A stretch of 64,000 nt of DNA from Paracoccaceae bacterium (GTDB lineage Bacteria; Pseudomonadota; Alphaproteobacteria; Rhodobacterales; Rhodobacteraceae), in NCBI GenBank assembly GCA_041594355.1, contig JBFHMM010000001.1:5872-69871 (forward strand). The letters run 5' to 3'. The position numbers and the translations under genes are program-made. The notes under the pieces are model-generated. The model did no database searches, was not told the DNA's origin, and worked only from the letters and a program-made list of their open reading frames with translations. Positions 10,632-40,351 of the stretch are shown in pieces. Within the stretch, counting starts at the first letter, position 1. Every line of letters starts with the position of its first letter.

Positions 10632-10802
10632 ATGAGCGACGATCTCGTATACGCCATTTTCAAGGAAATTGCCGTTTTGGAAGGCAAACGCACCCCGGAC
10701 GGTGAGTGGACGATTGAAGATGCAAACGAGGTGACGCGGTTGCTGACCCGCGCCTTTGCAGCAGTGCGACGGGCATCGACCCCCAGGGATGCCGACGCAT
10801 AA
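10632..10802 (+). CDS. 56-aa microprotein, unrecognised family (copy 1)
   Basis: MSDDLVYAIFKEIAVLEGKRTPDGEWTIEDANEVTRLLTRAFAAVRRASTPRDADA. AGGA RBS upstream. Homologous to 27029..27199 and to the C-terminus of 10889..11755. Confidence 0.85.
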   Translation: MSDDLVYAIFKEIAVLEGKRTPDGEWTIEDANEVTRLLTRAFAAVRRASTPRDADA

Positions 10803-10888
10803 GTCTCGTTCATCCAGATAGCCGAGCCTGGCAGTGTTTTTACATGCCAGGCTCTTTTGCCGTTCAATAACAGGCGCCGGTGGATGCG

Positions 10889-11755
10889 ATGTTGGTCAGT
10901 CATCAATACAAGTTCATTTTTTTGAAACCGGGTAAAACCGCGGGAACTTCGGTCGAAGTTTTCCTGGAGCCATTGTGTGCGGCGCCGGGGCACGTGTCGG
11001 CGCATGTCACGCCAACCATGGAAAGCCGCTTCGGTATTATTGGTGAGCGCGCGTCGGATCCGGATAGGAGCGGATTCTATAATCACATCCTGCCCTTCGA
11101 GTTGAAGCCCAAACTGGGAGACGAGGTTTGGAACAGCTATACGAAAGTTGCTACGGTCCGAAACCCATTTGACCGGGTCGTCTCGGCCTTTCACCACTTC
11201 AAGCTGGCGCTGGAAAAAAACGGAGCCCTGAGCCGAGACGAGGTCATCCGGAAATTCCGGGAGTGGATCGCGGAGTACAACATCAAGTCTCTCCAGATAT
11301 CGTCTTATGCGCAAATCGACGGGGAGCCATGTTTGGACTTCTTGATCAGATACGAAACCCTTGAGGACGACGTCCGCAGCCTTCTTAAGCGCCTCGGTGT
11401 CCTGCGTTCGTCTTTGGGGGATGTGCCCCGGCTCAAGACGGAATTTCGCAAGGGTGGCATTCCGCTGACCGACTACTTCGATGAAGAGACCAGGCAACGT
11501 GTTGTGGATAGCATGGTCAAGGACTTCGAACTTCTGGGTTACAGTGACCAGGTCGAAGATGCTGAGGCGGCCCGCTGCCGCCCTCAGGTGCCCAGTAGAA
11601 CGGATCTGGAACTGTCGGTGTTTACCGAATTGGCCGTTGCGACGGGGAGCAGAACGGTTGGCGGGGTTTGGACATCTGAAGATCTTGGGGCGCTCCAGAC
11701 CTTGCTTACAAGATCATTCCGGATGGTGAGGCGGGAGAAGGACAGAAACTTCTGA
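10889..11755 (+). CDS. Sulfotransferase (family 2-like) with C-terminal microprotein-like domain
   Basis: 5'-PSB FLKPGKTAGTS, 3'-PB VRNPFDRVVSAF, IRYETL, DFELLGY, then an extra ~60-aa tail. Confidence 0.85.
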   Translation: MLVSHQYKFIFLKPGKTAGTSVEVFLEPLCAAPGHVSAHVTPTMESRFGIIGERASDPDRSGFYNHILPFELKPKLGDEVWNSYTKVATVRNPFDRVVSAFHHFKLALEKNGALSRDEVIRKFREWIAEYNIKSLQISSYAQIDGEPCLDFLIRYETLEDDVRSLLKRLGVLRSSLGDVPRLKTEFRKGGIPLTDYFDEETRQRVVDSMVKDFELLGYSDQVEDAEAARCRPQVPSRTDLELSVFTELAVATGSRTVGGVWTSEDLGALQTLLTRSFRMVRREKDRNF

Positions 11756-11823
11756 CCAAGTTCACATCCGGCGGCAACCTGATTGAATGGTCCGGATGTT
11801 CAGCAACATTTTGAGAGGTCAAC

Positions 11824-12621
11824 ATGACAGTTGTTATTGCCCACGGTCAACCGAAGTCCGGCAGTACGTTTCTTTACATGACGGCGATGGAAATTGCGCA
11901 GAACGTGAACAGCGAGGAATTCTATACCTACAAGAACCGTGTGCTTGGTGAAGATTTTCCGACATTCGTAGATGAAATTACGGCGGATTTCGTGCTGGAT
12001 CTGGATAACAGAATCCCGAGGCACCAGATGTTCATCATCAAGACCCATGGCGAGCTGAGCGAGGATCTTGCCGCGATCATCGCCCGGGGCCAGGTCAAGG
12101 CTTTCACCTCGTTTCGGGATCTGAGGGATACGGCGCTGTCGACCCTGGACGTCGCGGTCAAAGACCGAGAAATCGGCGATGCGAGATACTTCGCGAAATA
12201 CAACGAGATCGAGCAATTGCGAAACGCGATCCCCTGGCAGTGGAACGCCGTGTCGCCCTGGGTCCGGTGCCCGGGCGTGTTTGCAAACCCCTACTACATG
12301 ACGGCGCTGTCCCAATCGACTTGTGTCGGGCTTTTGGCGCGTTACCTTGGCGCGGGTTACATGTCCAATACGCTTGCCGCTGAAATGGACGCGAAGCGTA
12401 CCAGCCTGCCTGAGTACAACAAGGGTGTGTTGGACCGGTTTGTCAGCGAGTTGAGCCCCAACGCGATTCAATTCGCCAACGAAACCTGGGCTGCTGAAAT
12501 TGCAGAATACAATGCTCTTCTCGAAACCAAGATGGCGGAACTGGGTCATGCCATGGCCTGCCATTATTACATGCGTATGCGCGATGCAAAGATTACCGAA
12601 CGCCTTGCCGAGGCTGCCTAG
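11824..12621 (+). CDS. Sulfotransferase-fold (P-loop) protein
   Basis: GQPKSGSTFL, IIKTH, FRDLRDTALS. Confidence 0.7.
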   Translation: MTVVIAHGQPKSGSTFLYMTAMEIAQNVNSEEFYTYKNRVLGEDFPTFVDEITADFVLDLDNRIPRHQMFIIKTHGELSEDLAAIIARGQVKAFTSFRDLRDTALSTLDVAVKDREIGDARYFAKYNEIEQLRNAIPWQWNAVSPWVRCPGVFANPYYMTALSQSTCVGLLARYLGAGYMSNTLAAEMDAKRTSLPEYNKGVLDRFVSELSPNAIQFANETWAAEIAEYNALLETKMAELGHAMACHYYMRMRDAKITERLAEAA

Positions 12622-12741
12622 TTTCGCGGCAAGATGACGGGTGACGCGTAAGTTTGGAAGGCTGAAGGCAAGGCCGTCTGCCCCGTGCATCCGATGTGAT
12701 GCTAGATTGTGTGAGGTGCCTTTGCTCTTGGAGTTGCCGAA

Positions 12742-15534
12742 ATGTTTTTGGATTTGAAGCTAGGCGAACAGTTCGAAAATCTAGACATACCAGATTCCGT
12801 ACGGGATCTCGCGGCGAGCGGTGAACCGTTCAGGACGCGCTTTGCAAAGATCGGGGACCTGTCCCTGTCGGTAGGGGAGCAGGAAAAGATCCGCAAGACT
12901 GCCGTCCAATTGACCGATCAGGCGAACTTGAGGCTTGCCGTCGTGCTGTGGGGCATGCTGCATCACCTGACGCCGACGAATGTCAATTATCTGCGCCGCA
13001 TTGTGCAATGCATCGTGGGGGTCTCCAATCCCGGTGTCTTCGCCGACTGCCTGTCCGACGGATGTCTGACCGAGGAGATTTGGAAGGACTGCGGCAACAG
13101 CCTGAACCATGCGATTCGGGTCAGCCTGGAGACGGAGGCGGACGACCGGCACGCGCTGCTCAAGACCCTGCTGCTGAGCAAGGCCGACAACACGCAGATC
13201 GCGCTCAACATGCTCAAACCTCTGCCGTCCAGGATGGTCGATGACTTCATGGAGGTCTGCCTGCGGGACGAGACCGTGCTGGAGGACCGGAAACAGATCC
13301 GGATCCTGTGCCGGCTAACCGAGCGGGCGGGCCATCCGAAGGCGGCGGCCCGCGCTTTCCCGCTCACCATCGGCGACAAGCAGAAGATGACGTTTCACCA
13401 GGCGCTGCTTGGCGGGCGGATCGCCGCGCAGACCGGCGACATCGAGAAGCTGGAGCATTTCAAGGTTCTTTGCCGCGCCGCTGCCCGGGAGACCCCGGAC
13501 CAAGCCCGCGAGTCGGCGATCTATCACCTGCTGTTCTTCGATTCGAGCGATGACAAGGCCATCGATACTGCGGTCGAGGTGATCAGCGACACGCTGGATC
13601 GCAAGGATCTGAACATGTCGCTGTTCTGGATTTACCTGGAAACCATCCTGAAGAAGAAAAAGGGTGGCGTATTGCTGGACAGGATCGCGCTGCGGGTGAG
13701 CGATGCGGCCATGGCCGAAAAGATCGCCATCCTTGCGGATGTCGTCAACGGCAAGGCGACGACGGAACGGGTTCTGAAAAGTTGCGTGGACGGGTTGTGG
13801 GATGATCCCAACACCGCCGGCCGGCTGATCTCGCGGATGGTCGGGCAGATCGACAACGAGGCAGAGTTGATCAGGGCGCTGGATATCCTGGGCAGCCTGG
13901 ATCCCACGTCGATGAAGATTCTCCGTTCCCATAGCCAGCAGTGGCGCGAAGGCGGCAAATACGAGCTGGCTGCGCATGGCTGGCGCGCGCTGGTGCGGGT
14001 CAATCCGCGCGACGACTGGGGCCGGGTCAACGCGATCTACTGTTTCCAGGTGCAGGGCGCGCTGGAGGCCGCGCGGGCGCTGACCGATGACTGGAACCTG
14101 GAGGCCTGCAGCGAGATCGTTCTGATTCACGCGGCGGCGTCGTTTGCCCGGGTAGGGCTTTCGGAGAAGGCGCGGGAGCTGTTCCTGCAGGCCGACGCGG
14201 CCTTGCGCGACGGGGTCGACTCGCTTCCCGAGGTGCACCGCCAGGCCCTTGCGCGGGGGCTGATCCTCTATGGTGAACTGGAGCGCGCCACGGCCTATGT
14301 TCCACCGCGTAAAAATCGGGGTGCACACCGCCCGGATCCCTCGCCGATCGTTCTGCTGGACCCCGGGCACACCGACAGCTCGGGTCACCACGCCAATTAC
14401 AACATCTTCTTTTCCGATTTCGTGCTGGAACATGACGGCGTGCGGCCGGAGATCCTGATCGGGCAGAAAACCCCGGGCACGGCGCTGGAAGGGCACGACG
14501 TGTTCCCTGCGGTGGTCTTCGAGCCCTATGTCTACAATGACTACAGTCTGGGCGCCGCCGAAATCGCCGGATTGAACGCGTCCTTCCGGCAGGAACTGAC
14601 CACGCTGTTCCAGGATCATGTGCCGGACACGCTGATCATGCATTCGATGCGGGCGATCATGCTCAGGGGTTTCGTGCAATGGCTCGAAGATCTAGGCGAC
14701 CGGCGTCCGCGCAGGCTGGCAATCGGCCTGATCGAGGCGGATCACCTGGCCGATGCGGAGTTGTCCGAAGTCTATTCCCAAGCTCTCAGCGACCCGCTGT
14801 CCAACCTCGGGCAGATGCATGTTGAGACGTTGATCCTGTTTGCCGAAACCACCTTTGCGGTGGATTGGCTGCAACAGCACGCGCCCGGGATCACGGTACA
14901 CAAGTTCCCCTATCTGGCGGCGGGCCGCGCGGCGCAGGCGGCCACCGGGTTCGATACGCTGCGTGCCGCGACCCCGGTCTTTGGCATCCTGGGGGCCACC
15001 CGCAAGGAGCGCGGGTTCAACCCGATCTTCCAGGCGATCCTGCAGGAAGGCGCCGCCGCGCCGCATTGGCATTTCCAGGTCGACGACCGGGCGGTGGGGC
15101 GGTTCGGCGACGATACCGCCGACCTGCTCGGGCAGATCGAGACCCGGATCGAGGCCGGGGAGCTTGACCAGGTCGACATCCTCAAGGGCTTCCTGTCGGA
15201 CGAGGAATATTACGGCGCCTTCGGGCGGCTGAACTGCCTGGTGTTGCCCTATTCGGGGCGCTATGCGGTGTCTGGATCCGGGGTGCTTTACGAGGCGGTC
15301 TACAGCCGCAAGTATCTGATCATTTCCGAAGGTTCGACGCTGGCGATCGAACTGGCGGAAATCGGCTATCCACACCGCACTGTCGACGTCGACGATCCCG
15401 AGACGATCCGGCGGGCGGTGGCAGAGACCGCGGCGGCCTGGCCTGCCATCGTGGATGAGCTGGAGACCTATTTCGCGGGCGCGCCGAAACTGCCGCTGGA
15501 AGGGTTCCGCGGGCTTTATACCGGTGCCGGGTAA
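12742..15534 (+). CDS. Helical/TPR-like N-terminus + GT-B (GT4-like) glycosyltransferase
   Basis: C-terminal LLDPGHTDSSGHHANY, GATRKERGF, LPYSGRYAVSGSGVLYEA. TPR-like helices around residues 390-520. Confidence 0.7.
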   Translation: MFLDLKLGEQFENLDIPDSVRDLAASGEPFRTRFAKIGDLSLSVGEQEKIRKTAVQLTDQANLRLAVVLWGMLHHLTPTNVNYLRRIVQCIVGVSNPGVFADCLSDGCLTEEIWKDCGNSLNHAIRVSLETEADDRHALLKTLLLSKADNTQIALNMLKPLPSRMVDDFMEVCLRDETVLEDRKQIRILCRLTERAGHPKAAARAFPLTIGDKQKMTFHQALLGGRIAAQTGDIEKLEHFKVLCRAAARETPDQARESAIYHLLFFDSSDDKAIDTAVEVISDTLDRKDLNMSLFWIYLETILKKKKGGVLLDRIALRVSDAAMAEKIAILADVVNGKATTERVLKSCVDGLWDDPNTAGRLISRMVGQIDNEAELIRALDILGSLDPTSMKILRSHSQQWREGGKYELAAHGWRALVRVNPRDDWGRVNAIYCFQVQGALEAARALTDDWNLEACSEIVLIHAAASFARVGLSEKARELFLQADAALRDGVDSLPEVHRQALARGLILYGELERATAYVPPRKNRGAHRPDPSPIVLLDPGHTDSSGHHANYNIFFSDFVLEHDGVRPEILIGQKTPGTALEGHDVFPAVVFEPYVYNDYSLGAAEIAGLNASFRQELTTLFQDHVPDTLIMHSMRAIMLRGFVQWLEDLGDRRPRRLAIGLIEADHLADAELSEVYSQALSDPLSNLGQMHVETLILFAETTFAVDWLQQHAPGITVHKFPYLAAGRAAQAATGFDTLRAATPVFGILGATRKERGFNPIFQAILQEGAAAPHWHFQVDDRAVGRFGDDTADLLGQIETRIEAGELDQVDILKGFLSDEEYYGAFGRLNCLVLPYSGRYAVSGSGVLYEAVYSRKYLIISEGSTLAIELAEIGYPHRTVDVDDPETIRRAVAETAAAWPAIVDELETYFAGAPKLPLEGFRGLYTGAG

Positions 15535-27028: not shown

Positions 27029-27199
27029 ATGTCTGACGAATTGGTACTGGGAATTTTCAAGGAACTCGCCGTGATGGAAGGCAGCCGCAAGCCCGACGGA
27101 AGCTGGGCTGTCAATGATCAGGAGGCGTTCAAACGGCTATTGCGCCGGGCCGGCCGGCTGGCCCAGTCGGCAAAGGGCGGTGACGAAACCGAGGCCTGA
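27029..27199 (+). CDS. 56-aa microprotein, unrecognised family (copy 2)
   Basis: MSDELVLGIFKELAVMEGSRKPDGSWAVNDQEAFKRLLRRAGRLAQSAKGGDETEA. AAGGGA RBS. 26/56 identical to copy 1 by ungapped hand alignment. Confidence 0.85.
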   Translation: MSDELVLGIFKELAVMEGSRKPDGSWAVNDQEAFKRLLRRAGRLAQSAKGGDETEA

Positions 27200-27311: not shown

Positions 27312-28358
27312 TTGAAGTCCGTTTTTCTTCACATCGGTCCGCACAAGAGCGGCACCTCGACAATGCAGAAATTCCTCGCCGAACGGCAGGATGATCTGGC
27401 GGCGCGGTTCTCGCTCAGGTTCTGCCGCACCGGGCGCAGCTGGCCCCGGCAAAACATCAACCTGGCCTGGCAGTTCCAGAACCCCAGGTTCTTTGAGCCC
27501 GACAGGGGGTCCTGGGCCGATGTCGCGGCCGAGATCGCCGCCGGGCCCGAAACGACGGCGGTGCTGTTCAGCGAATTGTTCTCGCGGTTCGGCGAGGATT
27601 CGATCGCCCAGGTTGCCGAGGCGTTGCGTGGTTTCGACACCCGGATCCTGTTTTACGGCCGCGCCCCGGCGGACTGGCTGGAAAGCTCCTATGCCCAGTC
27701 GTTCCGCAACCTGACCCCGCGCGACAACGCGGGGTGCTATCTCGATTTTGTTCGTGATCCGGGCGCGCGGCGACCGGTTGCCCGGATCCTGCCGGTGTTG
27801 GACAAATGGGCCTCCGCTTTTGGCGAGGATGCGATCATCCTGCGGTCATTCGAGGCCGCCCGCACCACCCCCGACGGCGGCTTGATGGCCGATTTCGCCG
27901 CCCAGCTGGGGCTGCGGGGGATCGATTTCAGCGATCTGCCGCAGCAGCGCAACCCGCGCATCGGGATCAAGACCATGGGCCTGTTCCATAACTTTTCGCG
28001 GCTGCTCTTGAAGACAGGCGTGCCGCTGGACCGCAAACCCCGGGACGCCCTGCGCAATGCGATCAACCGATATGGCCGCAAGCAGGGCTGGAACGAGGAA
28101 AGCGCCCGGTTCAACACCACCGAGACCCGGGCCATCATCGCCGAGCGTTACGAACCGCAGGTCCGCGCGGCGTTTCGCAAATATGCCGGGCAGGAGATCA
28201 CCCTTGCCGACGGCCCGCTGCAGCCCGACAGCATCGCACGGCAAATGCCTGCGGATCAGGTCGGCAGGGAAGACATCGACGGCTGCTTCCGCTTCATCGA
28301 GGAAATCTGCACGCCGGAAATGGTTGCCGCGTTCCAGCCCCTGCGCGACGCACTATGA
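27312..28358 (+). CDS. Sulfotransferase-fold protein (LHIG-K-SG/TG family)
   Basis: FLHIGPHKSGTSTMQ, FSE, YGRAPADWLESSYAQ. Confidence 0.78.
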   Translation: MKSVFLHIGPHKSGTSTMQKFLAERQDDLAARFSLRFCRTGRSWPRQNINLAWQFQNPRFFEPDRGSWADVAAEIAAGPETTAVLFSELFSRFGEDSIAQVAEALRGFDTRILFYGRAPADWLESSYAQSFRNLTPRDNAGCYLDFVRDPGARRPVARILPVLDKWASAFGEDAIILRSFEAARTTPDGGLMADFAAQLGLRGIDFSDLPQQRNPRIGIKTMGLFHNFSRLLLKTGVPLDRKPRDALRNAINRYGRKQGWNEESARFNTTETRAIIAERYEPQVRAAFRKYAGQEITLADGPLQPDSIARQMPADQVGREDIDGCFRFIEEICTPEMVAAFQPLRDAL

Positions 28359-28368
28359 CGCGCTCCGC

Positions 28369-29331
28369 TCAGGCCGCCCCAAGTTCGGCGGCCATCTCGG
28401 CTGCCTGGGCGCGGATCTCGGGCGTCAGCAGCGCCTCGTAATCGACATCGGCAAAGGGTGGTTCACCGTCCAGGCGCAGACCGACGCCATAGGTTTCCGC
28501 CACATAGGCCAGATCGCGGTCCATCTCCGCCTCGATCAGGGCGCGGGCGGCCAGCGGCAGGCAGAACCGCTCGCCGCCGAACTGCGCGGCAAAGGCCTTG
28601 ACCCGGCTGTTCTTCAGCCCCAGCCCCGGCCAGGTCCGGTGCATGTAATCGGTCACCACCGTCGCAAGCATCGAAAGGCTGGTGTTGGCCTGCACCTGCT
28701 TGAAGTCGGGATCCTCGGCGATTTCGGGTTTTCCGGTGGTCAGCTCCAGGAAATCGCGGACGATGTCGCCCCCGTTCAGGGCGGGGCGGGAACTGTCACG
28801 GACGATGACATTGTCGCGGCCGAACACCTTTTCATACCGCGGCAATACCTTGTGATACTGCACAAAGCGGGGCGCTTCGCAGCAGTCGGCCAGGCTGCGC
28901 TTGCCGTTCTTGATCTGGGTCTGGGCAAAGCTGGGGGCAAAGGACAGCGGATGGCGACAATAGATCACCAGTTTCACTTGCCGGCAGCCGCCCAGCAGAT
29001 CCTCGCGCAGGCGCACCAGCTCATCCGGTTTCAGCGAAGACACCGATTCCGAGGAGAAGGCGATGTTGCCGCCGTCCCCGGGATGCTCGGCGAAATAGGT
29101 GTTCAGCGCCCCCTCGATGCGCGGCGCGGTCATCAGGCTGCGCGGGGCATCCACATAGGGCCGCCCGACAAAGGCGATGTGGTTGCCCCCCGTCCGGTCC
29201 AGCGCCTCGGGGTAGGTCAACCCGCCCTGTTCCGCGACCAGGTCGCGGTTGACCGCCAGCGTGTTCTGGATCGAGGTCGATCCGGTCTTGGCGTGACCGC
29301 AATGAAGAAAACAGGTGTCATACATGGGCAT
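28369..29331 (-). CDS. Sulfotransferase-fold protein (LHIG-K-SG/TG family)
   Basis: LHCGHAKTGSTSIQ, SSE, YCRHPLSF, GDIVRDF, NTSLS. Confidence 0.78.
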   Translation of the reverse strand: MPMYDTCFLHCGHAKTGSTSIQNTLAVNRDLVAEQGGLTYPEALDRTGGNHIAFVGRPYVDAPRSLMTAPRIEGALNTYFAEHPGDGGNIAFSSESVSSLKPDELVRLREDLLGGCRQVKLVIYCRHPLSFAPSFAQTQIKNGKRSLADCCEAPRFVQYHKVLPRYEKVFGRDNVIVRDSSRPALNGGDIVRDFLELTTGKPEIAEDPDFKQVQANTSLSMLATVVTDYMHRTWPGLGLKNSRVKAFAAQFGGERFCLPLAARALIEAEMDRDLAYVAETYGVGLRLDGEPPFADVDYEALLTPEIRAQAAEMAAELGAA

Positions 29332-29364: not shown

Positions 29365-30372
29365 TTAAGCGGAAGGTCCGGAATCTCTGCGCTTTTTCTT
29401 AGCCTGGATGGCAACGTTGGCCAGATCGTCGAACAACAGGGCAAGGGAGCGGATCGTTTCGGGCCGGAAATAGGTTTCGGGGGCCGGAGGCGGGATGCTG
29501 GTGTCGATATCGGCGAACCGGAGACCATGAGCGGTTTCCAGGTAGTCGCGCACGGTTTTGGTCTTTTCCACAATCCGGGCGAGGGTTTCGCCGGGAAAGA
29601 CGTACTTCGGCCCCTCGACCTGCGGCAGCTTGCGCTGCAGCAGCCGGTTGCGTGAAAACTTGGGTGCAAATTCACTCAGCGCATCAGCCAGCAGCAGCCC
29701 GGCGCCGGACAGGGAATCGTTCTGCCGGATAGAGGGGATCTGCTCTACCAGGTCCCCCAGCCCGGCCCGGGATAGGAAATCGCCGACAATATCGGGCTTG
29801 CCGGGCAGATCGCCGGTATAGGCGCAAACGCTGACCGCATCATGACCAAAAACCCCGCTCCAGCGGTCAATCAGGCTCTTGTAGTGGCTGGTGGGCGGAT
29901 CGGCGAGGCAGTCGGCCAGCCGGGCGGCGCCGTTCTTGACCTGCTCCTGAATCATGCTCAGCGCCTGCTGCACCGGATCACGGACATAGACCAGAACCCG
30001 CAGGGCGGCGAAGCGTGCCTCGAGCCAGCGTTTCAGCGCCGCGATCTCATCGGCGTCCAGCAGTACCGAATGTTCGGCGCTCAGGATCACCAGCCGGGGG
30101 GCCGATGCGGCAATCTCGGCCTCCAGCTCGGCCAGCGTCGCGGTATTGTGTGCCACCGTGGCAGCGCCGCTGCGTCCGGCCATGCGATTGTAATCGAAAC
30201 TGTCGGGATCGGTCATGAAGGCCGAGACCAGAAACCGGTGATTGCGCTCCAGCGCCGGATACAGAACCCCCGCCTCGGCGAGAATGCCGCTGCCCTGTTT
30301 CAGGCTGACCTGGATCGAGGTCGACCCCGTCTTGGGCACACCGATATGCAACAGGCAGTCAGGTTTCATCAC
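29365..30372 (-). CDS. Sulfotransferase-fold protein (LHIG-K-SG/TG family)
   Basis: LHIGVPKTGSTSIQ, SAE, YVRDP, DIVGDF, NDSLS. Confidence 0.8.
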   Translation of the reverse strand: MMKPDCLLHIGVPKTGSTSIQVSLKQGSGILAEAGVLYPALERNHRFLVSAFMTDPDSFDYNRMAGRSGAATVAHNTATLAELEAEIAASAPRLVILSAEHSVLLDADEIAALKRWLEARFAALRVLVYVRDPVQQALSMIQEQVKNGAARLADCLADPPTSHYKSLIDRWSGVFGHDAVSVCAYTGDLPGKPDIVGDFLSRAGLGDLVEQIPSIRQNDSLSGAGLLLADALSEFAPKFSRNRLLQRKLPQVEGPKYVFPGETLARIVEKTKTVRDYLETAHGLRFADIDTSIPPPAPETYFRPETIRSLALLFDDLANVAIQAKKKRRDSGPSA

Positions 30373-30415: not shown

Positions 30416-31186
30416 TCAACCCTGCTGCAGATCCCAGCCGGCATCGCTTTCGGTGATCCAGTCCAGCCGGTTGATCCGTTTGAGGAACTCGCGCACGTCG
30501 TCCTTGTTATCGAAGCGCGACAGGATATGCGACGTATTGTTCCGCCGCAGGCTGGTTTGCAGCGGCCCGGGCTGTGCGACACCCAGATAGGGGAACAGCC
30601 GCCGCACCAGACCTTCGTTCAGCAGGTCGCCATATTCGAGATATTCGAAATGCTGCCCGGCGGCGTTCAGCGCTTCGACCACGCGTCCATAGAACCCGAT
30701 GTGACGGTTATAGAGGTTCCAGAACTGCTTTTCCTCGAATTCGACGGTCTCGTTCCAGGTCGGCTTGGCGCTGGTTTCCGCAACCGAGCTGCGCTTGCCG
30801 TCCTCGGTCGGAGCCGACCACAGCTCCTTTTTCTGCGAGATCAGCCGCGAGGAGTAGATCGACAGGAAATTGCGCCGGTTCAGCACGATCTTTTTCCAGT
30901 CGTCGCGCCGGATCAGCTCCTGCAGCAGATCCTCGTTGTGCCCGTCAAAGATCTTGAACCCGACCGCTTCGGCCCTGGCGTTGGTTTCTCCGACGATCTT
31001 GTCGAGAAACGCCGACGGGTTGGTGTTGCGCTCGGCGATTTCCGCGCTGCGGTCGATGCCGTCGATATTCAGTTCGTTCTGGTTGTACAGCTCGTAGTGG
31101 CATTTGACCGCCGGTGACGAGTTCAGAAGCTGGACCAGAAGGGTTGAACCGGTGCGCGGCGCGCCGATCAGAACAAATTTTTTCAT
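30416..31186 (-). CDS. Sulfotransferase (Stf0-like)
   Basis: IGAPRTGSTLL, CHYELYN, GFKIF, LNRRNFL...SS, LEYGDL. Confidence 0.8.
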   Translation of the reverse strand: MKKFVLIGAPRTGSTLLVQLLNSSPAVKCHYELYNQNELNIDGIDRSAEIAERNTNPSAFLDKIVGETNARAEAVGFKIFDGHNEDLLQELIRRDDWKKIVLNRRNFLSIYSSRLISQKKELWSAPTEDGKRSSVAETSAKPTWNETVEFEEKQFWNLYNRHIGFYGRVVEALNAAGQHFEYLEYGDLLNEGLVRRLFPYLGVAQPGPLQTSLRRNNTSHILSRFDNKDDVREFLKRINRLDWITESDAGWDLQQG

Positions 31187-39697: not shown

Positions 39698-40351
39698 TCA
39701 ACTGTTCCACTTGATACCAGTGACTGCAAGCGTTGGCGCAAAGGCCTCGTAGATGCGTTGCCGCTGCGCCGTCGTCACCTGGTCCTTGCGGATCAGCGGG
39801 GTTTTGGAAAACTCGGACTTGGCCCGTGTGTGCAGCTGGAACTCCGCGATGCCGCGCCTGTCCAGGATCCGGGGCAGCGCCCATTTCAGCCGGTCATAGC
39901 GCAGCACCCGGTTGACCATCAGCACCCGGCGTCCGTTTTCCATCCGGCTGTACTTGTAGTGGTCGACGGGAAAATTCCCGGCCTCGCAATAGCTCTCCCA
40001 GCTGGCGTCATAGGCACCATCGGGATTGTGCAGCGCGGAATTGCGCAGCATGTGAAAATGGCTGATGCATTTCTCGACCGGTTCGCGTTCGACGCAGAAC
40101 CGGAACATCGCGCCAAAGCGCTCTGCGCCCAGCAGATCCGCGATCTCCTGCGCGGGCATATGGTTGTAATAGATCGTCTTGCCGCCCGCGTCGGCAAAGT
40201 TGCGTGCCCGGTGCCCCGGTACCGGCGGCAGGATCGGGGTGACGATGGCCTCCTCCTCGAGACGCCCCGACAGGTCCACCTCGATGCTGGTGCCCGCGGT
40301 CTTGGTCGTCTTGATGAAGATGAAATTATGCCTGAAGGACACAATCGCCAT
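39698..40351 (-). CDS. Sulfotransferase (family 2-like)
   Basis: IVSFRHNFIFIKTTKTAGTSIEV, YNH, EREPVEKCISHF, LRYDRL. Paralog of 10889..11755. Confidence 0.82.
   Translation of the reverse strand: MAIVSFRHNFIFIKTTKTAGTSIEVDLSGRLEEEAIVTPILPPVPGHRARNFADAGGKTIYYNHMPAQEIADLLGAERFGAMFRFCVEREPVEKCISHFHMLRNSALHNPDGAYDASWESYCEAGNFPVDHYKYSRMENGRRVLMVNRVLRYDRLKWALPRILDRRGIAEFQLHTRAKSEFSKTPLIRKDQVTTAQRQRIYEAFAPTLAVTGIKWNS

Follow-up and report, generated by a model that had tools for sequence, protein, structure and literature searches.

A microprotein-family domain at the C-terminus of a predicted Sulfotransfer_2 enzyme and its free counterparts in a small gene module

The sulfotransferase and its C-terminal tail

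We analysed a window of 64,000 nucleotides from a Paracoccaceae bacterium (assembly GCA_041594355.1, contig JBFHMM010000001.1, positions 5,872 to 69,871), in which a sulfotransferase gene continues beyond its catalytic domain into a segment resembling a free-standing microprotein. The features discussed are listed with the evidence for each.

10632..10802, + strand: free microprotein copy 1, 56 aa (tblastn, HMM, AlphaFold2)
about 10745..12878, no strand: cassette exchanged relative to congener G557 (DNA comparison, GC)
10824..10854, + strand: stable RNA hairpin with UUUUG directly after it, in the gap that separates microprotein 1 from the sulfotransferase (folding energy)
10889..11545, + strand: Sulfotransfer_2 catalytic domain (Pfam, invariant residues, match to P0006, weak fold matches)
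11546..11602, + strand: linker from the catalytic domain to the tail (alignment; pLDDT 77-79)
11603..11755, + strand: fused microprotein-like domain (aligned over 11603..11734), a short C-terminal end and the stop codon
11824..12621, + strand: ST2, a 265-aa P-loop protein (motifs G-Q-P-K-S-G-S-T and F-R-D-x-R-D)
12742..15534, + strand: 'big', a 930-aa protein, the constant third member of the module
27029..27199, + strand: free microprotein copy 2 (tblastn, HMM)
39698..40351, - strand: distant tail-less sulfotransferase paralog, 217 aa (sequence comparison, tree)

The sulfotransferase ORF (10880/10889..11755, + strand) begins at GTG 10880 or ATG 10889 and ends with a stop codon at 11753-11755. 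ATG 10889 is the more likely start because the homologues and the 288-aa database entry P0006, which is 100% identical to the window sulfotransferase, begin there. Residues 4-222 matched the Pfam family Sulfotransfer_2 (PF03567) with an E value of 4.5e-13 and 50.3 bits, passing the gathering threshold of 22. Both the K-T-A-G-T-S loop for the PAPS 5'-phosphosulfate and the R-N-P-x-D-R-x-x-S motif for the 3'-phosphate are intact. Residues K19, T20-S24, E26, H69, R94, P96 and S102, invariant or nearly so in 61 homologues, are kept in the window enzyme. The loop, the motif and the conserved His hold the PAPS-binding residues of this superfamily. The AlphaFold2 model of the full-length protein reached a pLDDT of 91 and a pTM of 0.81, and its best PDB matches, though weak, were PAPS sulfotransferases. 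Judged by these features, the ORF is an intact Sulfotransfer_2 enzyme with a predicted role in PAPS-dependent glycan sulfation, and its catalytic part is an ordinary member of that family.

The departure from the family lies in what follows. The nearest tail-less homologues end at about 217-246 residues, whereas the window enzyme goes on through a linker of about 20 residues into the tail; to our knowledge, no described Sulfotransfer_2 member carries such a C-terminal helical-hairpin domain. Among the fused homologues the linker is about 13-60 residues long and variable in sequence. The paralog at 39698..40351, which shares 25% identity with the sulfotransferase over 220 residues (E 3e-15), stops where the catalytic domain ends and has no tail, as the initial annotation had observed.

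That annotation had also read the segment beyond the catalytic end and linker as a second version of microprotein copy 1, and the reading held. Within the window, tblastn aligned free copy 1 (10632..10799) with 11603..11734 at 22 of 44 positions without gaps (E 3.7e-10). The Smith-Waterman score of the tail against copy 1 was 105, compared with 22.9 +/- 4.5 for shuffled tails (maximum 52), and none of 20,000 shuffles reached it. An HMM built from 33 free family members, all from outside this genome, matched the tail at E 1.8e-14 over profile positions 4-50 among 1079 six-frame stretches, where the free copies at 10632 and 27029 were its only other matches. The whole genome, searched as a 3.7-Mb MAG that is 82%-complete, contains three copies of the domain, two free and one fused; free copy 2 stands about 110 nt upstream of a P-loop sulfotransferase-like ORF at 27312..28358. 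When 1.8 billion representative proteins were searched with a family profile, the window ORF (P0006) came back at E 1.1e-18. All eight near-invariant positions of the family (F10, E12, A14, G18, R20, G24, W26 and L38 in free-copy numbering) are present in the tail, whose reading frame is open and has no indel.

Structure prediction with AlphaFold2 gave free copy 1 a helix at residues 3-16, a beta bridge at 20/26 and a second helix at 31-49 (pLDDT 91.4). In the full-length model the tail has helices at 240-254 and 269-290 with a bridge at 258/264 (pLDDT 77-88), and the G-x-R-x-x-x-G-x-W motif is carried by the short beta-bridged turn between the two helices. The models thus give the tail and the free copy one predicted fold, helix / beta-turn / helix, and by alignment and model together the tail is a true member of the microprotein family that is predicted to be folded. 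At the start of the domain, where Met would be expected, the window tail has ACG and no start codon, and therefore the tail is made solely as a fusion here.

The profile search found 39 matches to the microprotein family, most of them free proteins of 54-94 aa, and a survey of their domain architectures left this sulfotransferase as the only genuine fusion partner. The long repeat proteins P0127, P0153 and P0161 were rejected as fusions, as they gave short, repeated and partial matches only; alignments were inspected for P0127, and the other two were judged from their profile-search matches. P0127 (3716 aa, metagenomic) contains at least 13 copies of H-G-x-R-Q-x-D-G-S-W about 111 residues apart and aligns to the family over the 13-residue G-x-R-x-x-D-G-x-W turn motif only, repeated many times, which we judged to be a short-motif resemblance to the microprotein turn and not homology. 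For the longer matches P0128, P0134, P0140, P0146, P0155 and P0156, an internal Met at the family start suggests that the start codon was called too far upstream. In the taxonomic family to which the window belongs, 5 of 400 species have a match, and a sample of 400 other alphaproteobacterial species had none. For either free copy, scans of Pfam (E <= 0.01) and NCBIfam gave nothing. Foldseek against the PDB returned no match to the microprotein model at E <= 0.001, and the fold searches yielded generic helical hairpins only, the best VIA-align Z of 5.7 lying within the background range. A search of the ESM Atlas by shape brought up unrelated families only, and the Atlas feature search gave no usable match. 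The family is thus rare, undescribed and without a fold or sequence relative of known function.

Free copies often stand at the head of an operon, and the C-terminal ends in the family are variable and disordered. These traits would suit a role in regulation, in the binding of a ligand or glycan, or as a substrate modified, for example, on a Ser/Thr/Pro-rich variable end. We consider such a role most improbable: the domain, net acidic in charge, matches no DNA-binding family or fold, the alignment has no conserved Ser, Thr or Tyr position, and fusion to the C-terminus of an enzyme would be unusual for a transcription factor or precursor peptide.

Fused and free forms in related genomes

The tail occurs in six further sulfotransferase clusters (P0008-P0012 and P0015), which include the isolate Aquibium sp. 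ELW1220. An assembly or frameshift artefact was ruled out, as the architecture is found in this isolate genome and in several independent metagenomes. A maximum-likelihood tree built from the catalytic domains put every fused form in a single 10-row clade (support 95/93), which also includes three tail-less proteins, P0007 (Oceanicaulis), P0013 and P0014 (Devosia). The gene clusters of the tail-less orthologues of Oceanicaulis and Devosia each hold one free 56-aa member of the microprotein family, and whole-genome scans found a single domain per genome, fused in Aquibium and free in Oceanicaulis and Devosia. Being fused in some genomes and separate but clustered with the orthologous partner in others, the domain and the enzyme follow a textbook Rosetta-stone pattern, as the initial annotation had proposed. 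The window differs from the usual case in having both states in one operon, an arrangement shared with L033, with the fused copy evolving faster. In one part of the tree, subclade B, forms with a fused tail, with a decayed tail and with none occur together.

Comparison of gene orders placed the domain within a larger unit. Congener G557, whose microprotein is listed under Seohaeicola saemankumensis, and genome G773 have microprotein, ST2 and 'big' in this order and lack a Sulfotransfer_2 gene; Aquibium and L031 have enzyme-with-tail, ST2, 'big'; and the window has free copy, enzyme-with-tail, ST2, 'big'. The tail of Aquibium and L031 therefore sits exactly where the free gene would. We surveyed 80 species-genome loci with Sulfotransfer_2 relatives of 30-56% identity, and matches to the microprotein domain and to ST2 at E 1e-34 or better were confined to the three closest; 'big' was present in two of these three, the Aquibium locus as fetched ending before it. 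A weak ST2-like match was seen in the Thiocapsa locus, one of the 80. This co-occurrence, together with the gene orders, argues for a tight module whose core is the microprotein, ST2 and 'big', with the Sulfotransfer_2 enzyme as an optional fourth member. Since the tail copy corresponds to a separate gene of the same four-gene module in related bacteria, we infer that domain and enzyme work together. The tie to sulfotransferase function drawn in the initial annotation thus stands as far as the Rosetta-stone pattern goes, but the most constant companions of the domain are the ST2 and ~900-aa genes and not Sulfotransfer_2 enzymes as such.

ST2 had no Pfam or NCBIfam match, its PDB sequence search was empty, and its hhalign alignment with Sulfotransfer_2 had a probability of 2.6%; its P-loop motifs make it a candidate sulfotransferase at the motif level only. 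No Pfam or NCBIfam match was found for the 930-aa protein 'big', and its homologues have a faint C-terminal GT-B (Glyco_trans_1_4) signal.

Distant members of the microprotein family adjoin gmd/fcl, manC, WcbI, glycosyltransferases and other sulfotransferase families, not ST2 or 'big'. Therefore, a single fixed partner would not fit the whole family. In L015 (G478) and L017 (G502) the distant members lie directly upstream of gmd (GDP-mannose 4,6-dehydratase), and in L015 also of fcl, and have no sulfotransferase as neighbour; the G478 cluster that holds the microprotein has a Sulfotransfer_3 gene about 8 kb further along.

Divergence, origin and exchange of the fusion

The two copies in the operon differ markedly in rate. 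Free copy 1 is 57-70% identical to the tails of class A (P0009-P0012 and P0015) and to the free copies of Oceanicaulis and Devosia, as against 37-48% identity between the window tail and any other family member. The window tail scored 49 bits with the family profile versus 69-92 for the others, the lowest among intact copies, and it has changed at the family-conserved positions V6 to E, L16 to A, K19 to S and D23 to G. Within class A the tails are 72-80% identical and the catalytic domains 47-64%, which counts in favour of selection on class A tails, better conserved than the enzymes that carry them; the window shows the reverse. By these comparisons, the window tail is the fastest-evolving intact member of the family, downstream of a slow-evolving free copy. 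Such a tail would be either specialising or partly redundant, and the fused copy in the window may no longer be doing its ancestral job.

Taken further, the same divergence could mean that the window tail is a redundant remnant in the course of being lost, a stage between the fused state of class A and the split state. In its favour, besides the mixed forms of subclade B, P0008, a sister and the only other protein with an upstream free copy, has an 8-residue tail deletion that removes the G..W turn (8 bits with the profile), so that its tail appears decayed, and P0013 has a stop right after a linker homologous to that of the window. We regard this remnant reading of the window tail as quite unlikely, given that its eight near-invariant residues, its open frame free of indels and its predicted family fold at pLDDT 77-88 all persist. 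The simplest history would be that the fusion is old, that a free copy appeared in one subclade, and that the fused copy then relaxed, decayed or was lost; the window tail suggests an intact, fast-evolving intermediate on this path from fusion to fission.

The coexistence of both forms had led the initial annotation to propose that free microproteins pair with the fused copy and so scaffold or titrate the enzyme. Pairing of two hairpins into a four-helix bundle would suit the presence of both copies in one operon, here and in L033, and hydrophobic faces beyond the need of a single helix-helix contact. As a general mode it fails, since most genomes have one form only: Aquibium has just the fused copy and several genomes just a free copy, and two of the latter, the congener and G773, also lack such an enzyme. 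In operons with both forms, the fused copy has diverged (window) or decayed (P0008) and shows no tight co-evolution with its neighbour. Pairing in this genome seems improbable to us.

As to how the fusion arose, class A tails begin M-S/T-D-D-L, as the free gene does, after a linker very variable in length and composition. Two fused class A genes, L031:4068-5063 and L018:8001-8969, retain the microprotein's own ATG, which in L031 is preceded, at a distance of 7 nt, by a Shine-Dalgarno-like GAGAGGGA. The Met start, this sequence and the positional equivalence of tail and free gene make it probable that the fusion arose when the enzyme gene lost the stop codon that had separated it from a microprotein gene further downstream. 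A more speculative extension is that class A may also make the small protein alone by internal initiation.

An origin of this kind raises the possibility that the fusion is simply tolerated, joined by stop-codon loss and with no functional tie to the enzyme, the microprotein serving ST2 and/or 'big'; class A may then still make it separately from the internal ATG. In keeping with this, the tail stands exactly where the free gene would be with respect to ST2 and 'big', the core module occurs without the enzyme, class A retains the internal Met and the Shine-Dalgarno-like sequence, and other Sulfotransfer_2 relatives have no such domain. We nevertheless hold it to be unlikely. The fusion persists over enzymes only 42-64% identical, with class A tails exceeding the catalytic domains in conservation; the window tail, having no start codon, is made solely as a fusion; and a free copy is kept in the clusters of tail-less orthologues.

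The fused gene appears to have reached its present site by exchange. DNA of the window and of congener G557 is about 96% identical up to about 10745 and again from 12878, with no similarity over the enzyme gene and 68% identity over ST2 in between. The congener has no fused sulfotransferase at this site, and its ST2 is 64% identical. The GC content of the segment is 53-56%, compared with about 65% in the flanks, and the breakpoints fall in the 3' third of microprotein 1 on the left and within the start of 'big' on the right. The DNA comparison and low GC therefore indicate that a cassette with the enzyme-with-tail and its ST2 allele was brought in by exchange, and one of the crossovers apparently fell inside the microprotein gene.

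The hairpin at 10824..10854 falls within this cassette. The segment 10800-10880 around it has an MFE of -28 kcal/mol (z -3.35), and 0 of 200 shuffles were equally good. A pattern scan did not pick the hairpin up. It is possibly a partial terminator or attenuator and, as a partial terminator, may allow the small gene to be expressed at a higher level than the enzymes.

A possible docking role for the domain

The reading that we prefer, with about even confidence, is that the domain would be a non-catalytic docking or assembly subunit of a glycan-modification module, here tethered to the enzyme. The constant members of the module would be the microprotein, ST2 and 'big', the ~900-aa glycosyltransferase-like protein, and enzymes of a single Sulfotransfer_2 clade would be an optional addition. 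Helix 1, hydrophobic on nearly all faces, would probably have its surface covered by a partner or by other copies of the domain, and fusion through a flexible linker at the enzyme C-terminus would tie the optional Sulfotransfer_2 enzyme to the ST2/'big' core. Large hydrophobic residues are conserved at 8 of 12 positions of helix 1 and at several positions of helix 2. This is more than a two-helix hairpin can bury by itself, which argues for an obligate interaction, either with a partner or among several copies. Physical docking and the identity of the docking partner are both things we infer. In a run without controls, modelling residues 1-230 (the catalytic domain) in complex with the tail gave no verdict (score 0.00); it speaks neither for nor against binding.

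A stronger version, possible but doubtful, would make the hairpin an obligate assembly or activator subunit of a hitherto unrecognised bacterial glycan-sulfation complex, composed of the microprotein, ST2 and the ~900-aa protein with or without a Sulfotransfer_2 enzyme. Lineages would switch between fused and free forms, class A would perhaps make both out of a single gene through internal initiation, and the window would be in passage from fusion to fission.

MbtH-like proteins (PF03621) are small non-catalytic partners of the adenylation domains of NRPSs, mostly free-standing and occasionally fused to an enzyme. They resemble the microprotein in being about 50-70 aa long, non-catalytic, encoded in biosynthetic clusters and either free or fused. 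They differ in fold, which is a beta-sheet-plus-helix, as opposed to the predicted helical hairpin of the microprotein, and in partner, an adenylation domain in one case and candidate sulfotransferase-type enzymes in the other. Neither free copy matched this or any other Pfam family at E <= 0.01. MbtH-like proteins are thus the nearest known analogy, and the microprotein is no member of that family. If the obligate-subunit reading were true, it would extend an MbtH-like principle to sulfotransferases.

Bacterial sulfated polysaccharides are poorly understood and of biotechnological interest. Should the domain prove indispensable as a subunit, it would have to be supplied when sulfated glycans are produced heterologously. 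No direct genetic evidence other than this fusion ties the orphan microprotein family to an enzyme, and the fusion also names candidate partners in the Sulfotransfer_2 enzyme, ST2 and the ~900-aa protein. The culturable Aquibium sp. ELW1220 has the fused copy as its sole copy. What is new here is the evolutionary anatomy of the fusion, the definition of the module, the cassette exchange and the rate asymmetry, and the genomes together form a clean natural series for microprotein fusion and fission: some have just the fused form, some the fused and the free, some a decayed tail beside a free copy, and some a tail-less enzyme with a free copy.

Some further genes in these neighbourhoods deserve mention. 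In Oceanicaulis (L029, 714-3586), PAPS-supply genes adjoin the orthologous module, namely a CysN/C-like GTPase with APS kinase and a CysD-like PAPS_reduct protein, and their position supports a sulfation role. In the window, four adjacent ORFs downstream of free copy 2 (27312-28358 on the + strand; 28369-29331, 29365-30372 and 30416-31186 on the - strand) each have a sulfotransferase-like P-loop at the start (H/P-K-S/T-G-S/T-S/T). ORF 27312-28358, the sole one of the four scanned, had no Pfam or NCBIfam match. All four are 96-98% conserved in the congener.
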